From a virus (Duplodnaviria > Heunggongvirae > Uroviricota > Caudoviricetes), in the IMG/VR virus record IMGVR_UViG_2671180357_000004, positions 1 to 25,327 of that record: a stretch of DNA of 25,327 nt; one strand, written 5' to 3'. The position numbers and the translations under genes were made by a program. Shown here one piece after another: positions 4,626 to 6,331 of this stretch. The notes below the pieces were generated by a model, which was not told the DNA's origin, did no database searches, and saw only the letters and a program-made list of their open reading frames with translations. The stretch's first letter is position 1. The number at the start of each line of letters is the position of its first letter.

Positions 4626-4638
4626 AAACAAATTGTTT
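4626..4638. promoter_or_regulatory. Perfect palindrome AAACAAATTGTTT (operator-like), copy 1 of 3
   Basis: Inverted repeat AAACAA-A-TTGTTT just upstream of the 4613 start; about 30 bp of flanking sequence nearly identical to copy 2. Confidence 0.45.
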
Positions 4639-4715
4639 TCTTATTGGTGTTGTTTTCTCAAAGCTAAAAAGACGTAAAAGCAGCATTCACAGGCGTTGCA
4701 GCTGATTTAAGACGT

Positions 4716-4737
4716 AAAAAGGGGGCTTTCGTCCCCT
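4716..4737 (-). terminator. Putative rho-independent terminator (- strand)
   Basis: On the - strand: AGGGG-acgaaagc-CCCCT hairpin followed by TTTTTA, 17 nt after the stop at 4754. Confidence 0.45.
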
Positions 4738-4753
4738 GTACGCAGGTGAGAGA

Positions 4754-5326
4754 TTAGTGGTGTACGTGCTGCGTTTTGTACGGCTGTTTGTTCAGGTTGT
4801 GGCGGTGGATCAGCTCGCGCATCATGTCTTCAAGACGGCTCTTGGTGTCGTCAAGCTGGTCGGCCATTGCCCCCAGCAGCTGGCGAACGGCCATCGGATC
4901 GTCGCTGTTCAGCTCAGGCATTTTGAATCCAGCCTGGGAAGACATCAGTTTGAAGGCGGCCAGCAACATCGCCAGAGAAGACTTCAACCCGGCGATTTCA
5001 CGATCTTTGCTGGCGTTGGTTTCATCTGCCTTGACTGAATCCGGTGAGCACTTCGGCTTGCTTACCATTTCCAGAGTTGCCTGAAGTTTGTCGGCGCGTT
5101 CTTTCTCTTCCAAATACGCTTCGCCGAAATGACGCGCCAGCATCACAATTTCAATCGGATCATCAATCATGCTTGAGAACTTGAGAACGCTGAAAAGGCG
5201 GTCAATAGGGGAGGCGTCGTCTTCGTGACCAACCACAAGACCCATGATCTCAACCAGTTCGGCCGCACCAACTTTTTTAATCACGCTTTCAACTTTGGCA
5301 TTAGTTTTTTTGCATTTTTCGCACAT
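4754..5326 (-). CDS. Hypothetical protein (190 aa from ATG at 5326)
   Basis: ORF in track (4754..5353); ATG MCEKCKK with SD AAGGA 8 nt upstream; operator-like palindrome 22 bp upstream. Confidence 0.5.
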   Translation of the reverse strand: MCEKCKKTNAKVESVIKKVGAAELVEIMGLVVGHEDDASPIDRLFSVLKFSSMIDDPIEIVMLARHFGEAYLEEKERADKLQATLEMVSKPKCSPDSVKADETNASKDREIAGLKSSLAMLLAAFKLMSSQAGFKMPELNSDDPMAVRQLLGAMADQLDDTKSRLEDMMRELIHRHNLNKQPYKTQHVHH

Positions 5327-5347
5327 GTGTTTTTTCCTTATGTATTT

Positions 5348-5360
5348 AAACAAATTGTTT
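5348..5360. promoter_or_regulatory. Perfect palindrome AAACAAATTGTTT (operator-like), copy 2 of 3
   Basis: Identical core to copy 1, with shared flank TTAAACAAATTGTTTTCTTA. Confidence 0.45.
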
Positions 5361-5434
5361 TCTTAATTGTGTTATTGTGGCGTGACTGAAAAGGTGGCCA
5401 AACGCTACATAAAGGTGGACGTCCATACTGACGG

Positions 5435-6250
5435 TCAATGAAGACGTTTGGATTCCTTCATTGCACGTTCGACATGCTCACGACACGGCTCATATTCAAT
5501 GGCGCTGGAGGCAATCAACCCGGCTGCAATTAGTTTCACAGCTGCAAAGCAAAGCCCTTTAAAGGTGAACTTGGCCTGGTTGCGACCGTTTCCGATGACA
5601 ACGTTTTTGCCATATCCGCGGTCAATGAAGATCTTGAGGAACTGGCGACTAACTGTGGTGTATTTGCGCTTAACATACACATCACCCAGCAAATCCATCA
5701 GCGCCCCCAGAACAGCCCCGGACGTGCCGAGAATGCGACCGGCTTCATTCAACCCATAAAGTTCATCAGCAGTGCCGCAAATGGTGTCCATGAGAATGGC
5801 TTTTGGCTTTGCGTTGGATAGTGCTACGCCCAACGCCTCGTTCTCACTCTCCAGACGCTCGTTTTCCTCAACCTGGCGCAGCAAATGAACCAGCGCTTCT
5901 TTATAGGTACGCGGAATAGCAGGCGTTCCGTGGTAGGCAAACATGGATTCAAGCTCTCTCCACCGATCAACAAGACGTGCGGTAAATTCAGGAGAAAGCT
6001 GTGCCACGACAACGATACTGTCGCGCTTACCCTGTTCGGCTTCGAATAAGTAAAACGTAGCCGGACGCCCGGCAGTGGGCTTTTCCACCATTGGTGGAAA
6101 AGTAATAACGCCGGATTTAGCGAGTCTTTCAATGGTACGCTTTACGCTGTCATGGCGACTGCCGACCATTTCGGCGATCTCCTGACTGGTCATCGATGGC
6201 CTGGCATGTAAGCCTGTGGTGCTGGGAGCGTGTGCAGTTACCTCAAACAT
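5435..6250 (-). CDS. Phage regulatory protein, Rha-like N-terminus with antirepressor-like C-terminal region
   Basis: 271 aa. N-terminal MTSQEIAEMVGSRHDSVKRTIERL...KRDSIVVVAQLSPEF resembles the Rha/antirepressor family; assignment from pattern memory. Confidence 0.55.
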   Translation of the reverse strand: MFEVTAHAPSTTGLHARPSMTSQEIAEMVGSRHDSVKRTIERLAKSGVITFPPMVEKPTAGRPATFYLFEAEQGKRDSIVVVAQLSPEFTARLVDRWRELESMFAYHGTPAIPRTYKEALVHLLRQVEENERLESENEALGVALSNAKPKAILMDTICGTADELYGLNEAGRILGTSGAVLGALMDLLGDVYVKRKYTTVSRQFLKIFIDRGYGKNVVIGNGRNQAKFTFKGLCFAAVKLIAAGLIASSAIEYEPCREHVERAMKESKRLH

Positions 6251-6318
6251 ACGTTTTCCATTCAGTACAAAAGGGCCGTCAGCAGCCCTTGTTGTTAACT
6301 CTCATTAATCATTTGTCT

Positions 6319-6331
6319 AAACAATTTGTTT
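6319..6331. promoter_or_regulatory. Perfect palindrome AAACAATTTGTTT (operator-like), copy 3 of 3
   Basis: AAACAA-T-TTGTTT, about 70 bp upstream of the Rha-like gene start at 6250. Confidence 0.4.

Follow-up and report, generated by a model that had tools for sequence, protein, structure and literature searches.

A 13-bp perfect palindrome, AAACAA(N)TTGTTT, stands at the head of about 17 transcription units scattered over phage-plasmids of the SSU5 family, and we propose that it is the DNA operator of a dimeric repressor encoded by the element itself, a reading to which we give a probability of roughly 55%. The stretch analysed (hereafter the window) is the whole 25,327 nucleotides (nt) of the IMG/VR virus record IMGVR_UViG_2671180357_000004. 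By sequence identity, the window is part of an SSU5/pHCM2-type phage-plasmid: its region is 99.4% identical to the closest complete plasmid, NZ_CP122497.1 of Escherichia coli (107,494 bp; hereafter the plasmid), of which it represents about 64.2–88.5 kb in reversed orientation, and 92.5% identical to Salmonella phage SSU5. Elements of this type are very common in Enterobacterales, with at least 800 plasmids in PLSDB that include pMT1 and the ~106-kb pHCM2-type plasmids of Salmonella Typhi, and some carry resistance genes. The switch between lysogeny and lysis in SSU5-like elements is essentially unstudied, and a 13-bp site at about 17 promoters offers an experimental handle on it.

Exact matches to AAACAAWTTGTTT (AAACAA(N)TTGTTT) lie at 4626–4638, 5348–5360 and 6319–6331 and nowhere else in the window. 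Dinucleotide-preserving shuffles contain 0.01 copies on average, and 0 of 100 reach three. Allowing up to two mismatches adds a single match, at 3459 inside hsdR, which is at chance level. The three copies precede minus-strand starts at 4613, 5326 and 6250, with gaps of 12, 21 and 68 nt between palindrome and ATG for copies 1, 2 and 3. Around the dyad, copies 1 and 2 have 20 bases in common (TTAAACAAATTGTTTTCTTA), and over a longer flank they agree at 29 of 34. A preliminary description of the window had reported three perfect copies with no other in 25 kb, distances of 13, 22 and about 70 nt to leftward starts, and about 30 bp of nearly identical flank around copies 1 and 2, all of which our exact-match search, gap measurements and base count bear out. 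The copies and their promoter elements are as follows.

4626–4638, unstranded: palindrome copy 1 (AAACAAATTGTTT), 12 nt from the ATG of a DUF4942 5' remnant
4639–4661, minus strand: 13-nt spacer of copy 1 (AACACCAATAAGA) and a weakened extended -10 (tTGaGAAAAC)
5348–5360, unstranded: palindrome copy 2 (AAACAAATTGTTT), abutting the Shine-Dalgarno sequence (SD) AAGGA, with the ATG 21 nt on
5361–5401, minus strand: promoter of copy 2, with -35 TTGGCC at 5396–5401, a 16-bp spacer, -10 CACAAT at 5374–5379 and 13 nt to the palindrome
6319–6331, unstranded: palindrome copy 3 (AAACAATTTGTTT), with the Rha ATG 68 nt on

The promoter boxes and the dyad are conserved together in the orthologues of copies 1 and 2. 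Orthologues of copy 1 are present in SSU5, in Klebsiella phage pJN2-26 and in two IMG/VR loci (L074, L124). The copy-1 -10 reads GAAAAC in the window, where the key last T is lost, GAAAAT in SSU5, and TGAGATAAT or TGAAATAAT in relatives; a consensus promoter scan at copy 1 returns TTGAGA-18-AACAAT alone. At copy 2 the layout TTGnCn / 16 / CAnAAT / 13 / dyad is kept in four orthologues, in which the downstream protein is 56–64% identical to that of the window.

Across the full plasmid we found 10 perfect and 7 one-mismatch copies, and no other palindrome there is nearly as over-represented. All 17 of the 17 copies are intergenic and upstream of genes. The preliminary description had named copies at random coding positions across the full element as the pattern that would speak against operators, and because every copy in the full plasmid is intergenic and 5' of a gene, that objection falls away. 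The genes behind the motif include the small terminase gene terS (two copies, 25 bp apart), parA, a DnaB-like helicase gene, a cobT-like gene at the start of the DNA polymerase III alpha region, Rha, a gene for a 190-amino-acid (190-aa) protein, DUF4942 and a run of small genes at 95–102 kb. The immunity or antirepressor module first suggested was thus too narrow a frame, given that the ~17 sites head terminase, partition, helicase, cobT-like and many small genes.

The motif recurs throughout the family. In Cyrano 18 sites match with at most one mismatch; there are 5 in the first 50 kb of SSU5 and 6 in Yersinia pestis pMT1 (NZ_CP009722; at 3613, 3638, 12527, 13019, 25182 and 41275), where 0.1–0.3 would be expected by chance in each. 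The pMT1 sites front terS, the cobT-like gene and small genes, with perfect copies at terS, cobT and one small gene; pMT1 also retains the CI-like and FljA-like genes discussed below. In pJN2-26 the motif occupies orthologous places, with about one match expected by chance when two mismatches are allowed. A scan of IMG/VR with an extended motif recovered 44 SSU5-like loci plus single chance matches. Four non-matching loci have at least two copies: three (L019, L022 and L075) are on contigs of SSU5 size, one of which also carries an SSU5-like locus, and the fourth (L103) has two copies on a 13-kb contig. The motif is conserved in relatives down to about 57–77% identity. On this distribution the motif is specific to the SSU5-like family and defines a predicted element-wide regulon of about 17 sites. 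Because the dyad does not vary between E. coli, Klebsiella, Yersinia and the metagenomic relatives, the family offers no altered dyad with which covariation of motif and protein could be followed.

The motif sits in a recurrent cassette. In gene direction, the usual cassette opens with a weak -35 and a -10 that is often of the extended type (TGnGATAAT or TGnTATTAT); then come 13 nt similar to tACACCAACAAGA, the palindrome itself, an SD and the ATG. Thirteen nt is the modal spacing from the -10-like hexamer to the dyad, so that the dyad would occupy about +7 to +19 of the predicted transcript. The motif mostly falls within the predicted 5' leader, 8–25 nt from the start codon, and its register with the -10 is tighter than its distance to the ATG. 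At the helicase promoters the dyad starts 3–5 nt past the -10, so the predicted start site falls within the dyad. A perfect 6+6 dyad is present in 111 copies, and the central base is free to vary (A45, G37, C36, T34). As a separate observation, a conserved hairpin lies at about 50885–50917 of the plasmid, just upstream of the cobT-like promoter and overlapping its -35; it has a stem of 9–12 bp (CTGTACGAACAG ... CTGTTCGTACAG) and, in Cyrano and pJN2-26, substitutions on the two arms that compensate each other (GTAC to GCGC).

Entire cassettes, and not the dyad alone, resemble one another, and interchangeable genes stand behind the same cassette: at one locus it precedes Rha in the window, TerB in pJN2-26 and, in Cyrano, a TciA-like gene, and in the hyperplastic region each small gene has a copy of its own. 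The cassettes may also explain the swapping of accessory genes. These features would suit a reading that needs no dedicated factor, in which a conserved ~45–60-bp promoter and A/U-rich leader act as an enhancer or start element and as a homology patch, with the palindrome a by-product. The leader of T7 gene 10, AGAAATAATTTTGTTTAAC, resembles the motif, and the PeSL cassettes of T4 are a precedent. We nevertheless judge this quite improbable. Conservation is far higher at the 12 dyad positions than elsewhere in the cassette, where flanking positions hold at most 0.1–0.4 bits, AGA excepted; the dyad outlives flanks that have wholly diverged, as at terS, parA, helicase and cobT; and two-fold symmetry around a free centre is unexpected of a leader or an enhancer.

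These properties lead us to the operator model. From the number, placement, register and conservation of the sites, and the low expression behind them, we infer protein binding, action on DNA and repression. A dimeric DNA-binding protein encoded by the element would recognise AAACAA-N-TTGTTT. In most cassettes the occupied site would lie at about +7 to +19 of a sigma-70 promoter, and in the helicase cassettes across the predicted start, and the bound protein would block RNA polymerase. The ~17 dispersed transcription units would thereby be repressed jointly for as long as the element replicates in plasmid form. Within the window, three consecutive leftward units would be controlled in this way, those of the DUF4942 remnant, the 190-aa gene and Rha/Ant.

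We examined expression behind the motif in published RNA sequencing of a lysogen of one relative, Cyrano (PMC9928086, S1 Table; values are normalised counts). The first genes behind the motif have counts of 5–13 against a median of 9.8. Silent examples are terS (7.1), the cobT-like gene (7.8), CYRAN_58 (5.7), CYRAN_85 (7.0), CYRAN_87 (7.1) and CYRAN_101 (7.5). That reasonable promoters stay silent is weakly consistent with repression. The preliminary proposal of operators for one dimeric repressor thus gains dyads on or just after conserved sigma-70 promoters and mostly silent downstream genes, while its dimeric DNA-binding repressor is still a postulate.

Several observations weigh against the operator model. 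Most phage genes are silent in a lysogen anyway, which makes silence behind the motif weak support, and some genes are expressed despite the motif: the parA operon at 50–89, the helicase gene at 21 and CYRAN_111 at 25.5. The start sites on which the model relies are predicted ones. Copy 3 is atypical, missing the AGA flank and having no convincing sigma-70 boxes at the usual spacing. The flanks are asymmetric, with AGA on the promoter side only, and in degenerate copies the promoter-distal half has 56 mismatches against 30 in the other half, a count that may partly reflect how the sites were oriented. Domain scans of the element's proteins have yielded neither a binder for the motif nor any further regulator, and two features of the CI-like control region, taken up below, point the same way.

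The position of the motif in the predicted short leader, 8–25 nt before the start and next to the ribosome-binding site, admits an alternative at the RNA level. In this alternative the element's FljA-family protein would bind the leader RNA site AAACAAnUUGUUU just upstream of the SD, block translation initiation and destabilise transcripts. The protein (WP_112916377.1; PF03614, "repressor of phase-1 flagellin", 5e-95) is encoded in every SSU5-like element examined; its gene lies outside the window at 104576–105103 of NZ_CP122497.1, flagellar FljA is 35–38% identical to its product, and searches found the protein in 831 plasmids and in 12 phage records of the SSU5-like group, with one further match that was weak and partial. 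It models as two tandem Hfq/Sm domains (predicted local distance difference test score, pLDDT, 84), with Hfq as the top Foldseek matches. According to PMC2652032, FljA prevents translation of fliC mRNA. Protein and motif also track each other in four cases: both occur in typical plasmids, in SSU5 and in pMT1, and neither in a distant Acinetobacter relative over the 40 kb examined. The leader of Salmonella fliC contains CAAGUUGU next to its SD, an 8-nt match to the G-centred motif, and an unmirrored AGA on the promoter side is what an RNA site could show. T4 RegA, a global translational repressor, selects AAAAUUGUUAUGUAA.

Other features fit this alternative poorly. An RNA site gives no reason for perfect self-complementarity around a free centre, and the motif would form a hairpin of -0.7 kcal/mol. 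The predicted start would truncate the left half of the motif in the helicase cassettes, and copy 3 sits 68 nt from its ATG, behind a hairpin. The fliC element is equally conserved in 8 of 8 Salmonella and Citrobacter leaders recovered, and because CAAGUUGU is kept in Citrobacter too, it cannot be tied to FljA. The FljA-like protein may instead be a moron that represses host flagellin. We therefore see translational control through the leader as possible, if unlikely. A fuller version, in which the tandem-Hfq protein would act on the nascent leader RNA, and possibly on DNA as well, to run a RegA-like global regulon of post-transcriptional silencing, strikes us as rather unlikely; were it true, SSU5-like phage-plasmids, pHCM2 in S. 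Typhi and pMT1 in Y. pestis among them, would run such a regulon, and FljA, the phase-variation repressor of Salmonella, would be a domesticated member of this family of phage-plasmid regulators. As for RNA structure, the leader folds no better than shuffled sequences, and with a stem of -0.7 kcal/mol we ruled out a structured RNA element or intrinsic terminator.

A second alternative starts from parA, whose promoter has the motif in every lineage seen. A ParG-like partner of ParA would bind the motif, combining autoregulation of par with a role as global silencer or with a centromere-like site, like omega of pSM19035. The small partner (WP_160378290.1) has a ribbon-helix-helix-like pattern, in which a putative DNA-reading strand, IxSRTMSxEDE, and the segment TRSDVIRAAI are invariant at overall identities down to 49%; it is expressed in lysogens (89), and the 7-bp period of the half-sites would fit ribbon-helix-helix geometry. 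We consider this role very improbable. pMT1 is without the ParG-like module (0 Yersinia among 797 matches, with another ParAB pair annotated) and yet keeps perfect motif copies. At parA there is one dyad and no contiguous repeat array, unlike a type Ib partition centromere or an omega-type heptad operator. A sequence search of the PDB, an AlphaFold monomer model, Foldseek and hhalign gave no support for a ribbon-helix-helix fold.

Returning to a DNA-binding repressor, we asked which protein of the element could read the dyad. The preliminary description saw no obvious cognate repressor in the window, and we agree, since no candidate binder lies there. Ten further small or core proteins, scanned against Pfam, gave no regulator. 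We excluded Rha because the motif persists in relatives without it: neither Cyrano nor the orthologous locus of pJN2-26 has Rha, yet both keep the motif, and diverged Rha homologues occur without the motif. An AraC-type helix-turn-helix (HTH) protein and an S24 peptidase near the window region in the plasmid are cargo between insertion sequence elements, and CYRAN_43, the most highly expressed locus in the lysogen, is not in NZ_CP122497.1. The most plausible binder is a near-universal CI-like HTH protein encoded beside the integrase, followed by an unrecognised core protein. The CI-like protein (WP_003980690.1) corresponds to the "putative repressor" CYRAN_45, is expressed in lysogens and is found in about 1000 plasmids, pMT1 included. 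SSU5, a lytic isolate, is without the integrase, CI-like and cro-like genes, and only the last cro-like codons remain. The deletion lies at 42597–42760 of SSU5 (NC_018843), against 48895–50851 of the plasmid. SSU5 thus fits a repressor-less deletion derivative of a plasmid prophage, and loss of the CI-like gene from a lytic phage fits a master repressor.

The two features deferred above concern this candidate. Between the CI-like and cro-like genes there is no copy of the 13-bp motif within two mismatches, and the CI-like control region bears a second palindrome instead, GGTAAGTACTTACC (GGTAAGTRCTTACC, GGTAAGT(A/G)CTTACC). The second palindrome is kept upstream of the CI-like gene in E. coli, Cyrano, Klebsiella pJN2-26 and pMT1. 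In the plasmid it has 4 perfect copies and about 9 with one mismatch, almost all of them between genes; the window has a perfect copy at 8386–8397 and one-mismatch copies at 7190, 9444 and 15526. Where a -10 is visible, the second palindrome is centred at about -22.5 (CI-like promoter; plasmid 99253).

The Acinetobacter relative is informative here. At places equivalent to those of the 13-bp motif it has a different perfect palindrome, for example 20 nt before the cobT-like start, and that palindrome overlaps -35 regions. Its CI-like protein is 40% identical, and the dispersed palindrome of this relative is AGTCAGTACTGACT (AGTCAnnnnTGACT), with 9 copies per 40 kb, one of them in the intergenic region between the repressor and cro-like genes. 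AGTCAGTACTGACT and the second palindrome agree at 10 of 14 positions, and the changes are symmetric in the two half-sites, with the outermost G/C turned to A/T and the fourth A/T to C/G. These symmetric changes suggest that the CI-like protein reads the second palindrome, and do not assign it to AAACAAnTTGTTT. The second palindrome is thus probably the operator set of the CI-like repressor, which suggests that two operator sets, the 13-mer and the second palindrome, would govern the element.

Two LexA-like boxes lie in the plasmid outside the window. One, CTGTTTATAAATACAG (plasmid 48849), lies 46 nt upstream of the integrase gene, from which transcription would run antisense into the convergent CI-like gene; the other, CTGTATGGATAAACAG (plasmid 91214), precedes an umuD-like S24 peptidase gene. 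The SOS induction reported for Cyrano might proceed through the box at the integrase. We also considered the LexA box (CTGT-N8-ACAG) as an explanation of the motif and set it aside: the window has none, and the two found elsewhere in the plasmid show no relation to the motif. Pairs of 13-bp palindromes 51 bp apart, considered as cooperative auxiliary operators, are instead back-to-back divergent promoters that share one A/T-rich -10 segment.

Functionally, the closest known systems are the operators of P1 C1 and of RK2 KorA/KorB, and by sequence the motif belongs to neither. In P1, the single repressor C1 acts at many operators scattered over about 100 kb, including those of ban (a DnaB-type helicase gene) and of the antirepressor unit. 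The resemblance lies in one site set of a plasmid-prophage regulator heading separate units, here likewise helicase and Rha. The P1 operator, however, is an asymmetric 17-mer (ATTGCTCTAATAAATTT), whereas the site here is a symmetric 13-mer, and we saw no C1 homologue. KorA and KorB of RK2 use perfect palindromes of 12–13 bp, in about 7–12 copies, in replication, partition and transfer promoters, KorB being of ParB type. Their sequences, GTTTAGCTAAAC and TTTAGCSGCTAAA, differ from the motif, and the element here has two ParB_N proteins. RK2 is an IncP plasmid, and its KorA/KorB regulon (KorA: PMC2665229) co-ordinates a whole mobile element.

Other parallels are partial. Like lac O1, the dyad is centred at about +11 to +13 of a sigma-70 promoter, and repression by blocking polymerase would be the same; unlike lac O1, it is much shorter, present in many copies and unrelated in sequence, and no LacI-family protein was found. 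FljA at fliC and T4 RegA are small repressors, of phage type or acquired horizontally, acting on an A/U-rich sequence by the ribosome-binding site, and the element encodes a FljA-family protein, but their sites are not palindromes. The T4 PeSL elements are repeated promoter cassettes before small hyperplastic-region genes, plausibly for modular gene exchange; a PeSL consists of a promoter and a stem-loop terminator, whereas the core here is a short dyad after a promoter. Our literature searches found the full 13-mer in no paper, and matches to 11-nt cores are in unrelated papers. The papers found on regulation in SSU5 and pHCM2 likewise gave no description of an operator and name only a "putative repressor".

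The genes and hairpins around the three window copies are as follows.

4266–4613, minus strand: 5' remnant of a methyltransferase-like gene (DUF4942), truncated where it borders the hsdR of an inserted type I restriction-modification system
4720–4737, minus strand: terminator-like hairpin, ending the upstream unit (190-aa gene) ahead of the copy-1 promoter
4754–5326, minus strand: 190-aa gene (PHROG 5508), function unassigned, conserved in relatives and served by copy 2
5435–6250, minus strand: Rha/Ant-type gene (Pfam Phage_pRha; PHROG 63, anti-repressor Ant), accessory
6272–6290, minus strand: GC-rich hairpin and UUUU in the Rha leader, between palindrome copy 3 and the start codon

In relatives the DUF4942 gene is full-length, at 1.7 kb. 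The type I restriction-modification system beside the truncated gene (window 842–4613) has hsdR at 842–4078, with hsdM and hsdS further left in the plasmid. The hairpin in the Rha leader suggests that Rha expression needs read-through or is under attenuation control. Diverged Rha homologues (in L042 and L124) have a different terminator hairpin at this place, 12–15 nt before the ATG, without the palindrome.

An unannotated stretch of the window at about 8080–8210 on the minus strand, downstream of the second palindrome at 8386 and a TGaTACAAT box, matches CYRAN_81 (44 aa). CYRAN_81 has a count of 117 in the Cyrano lysogen against the median of 9.8, and the matching stretch may be a small RNA or a small protein expressed in lysogeny.

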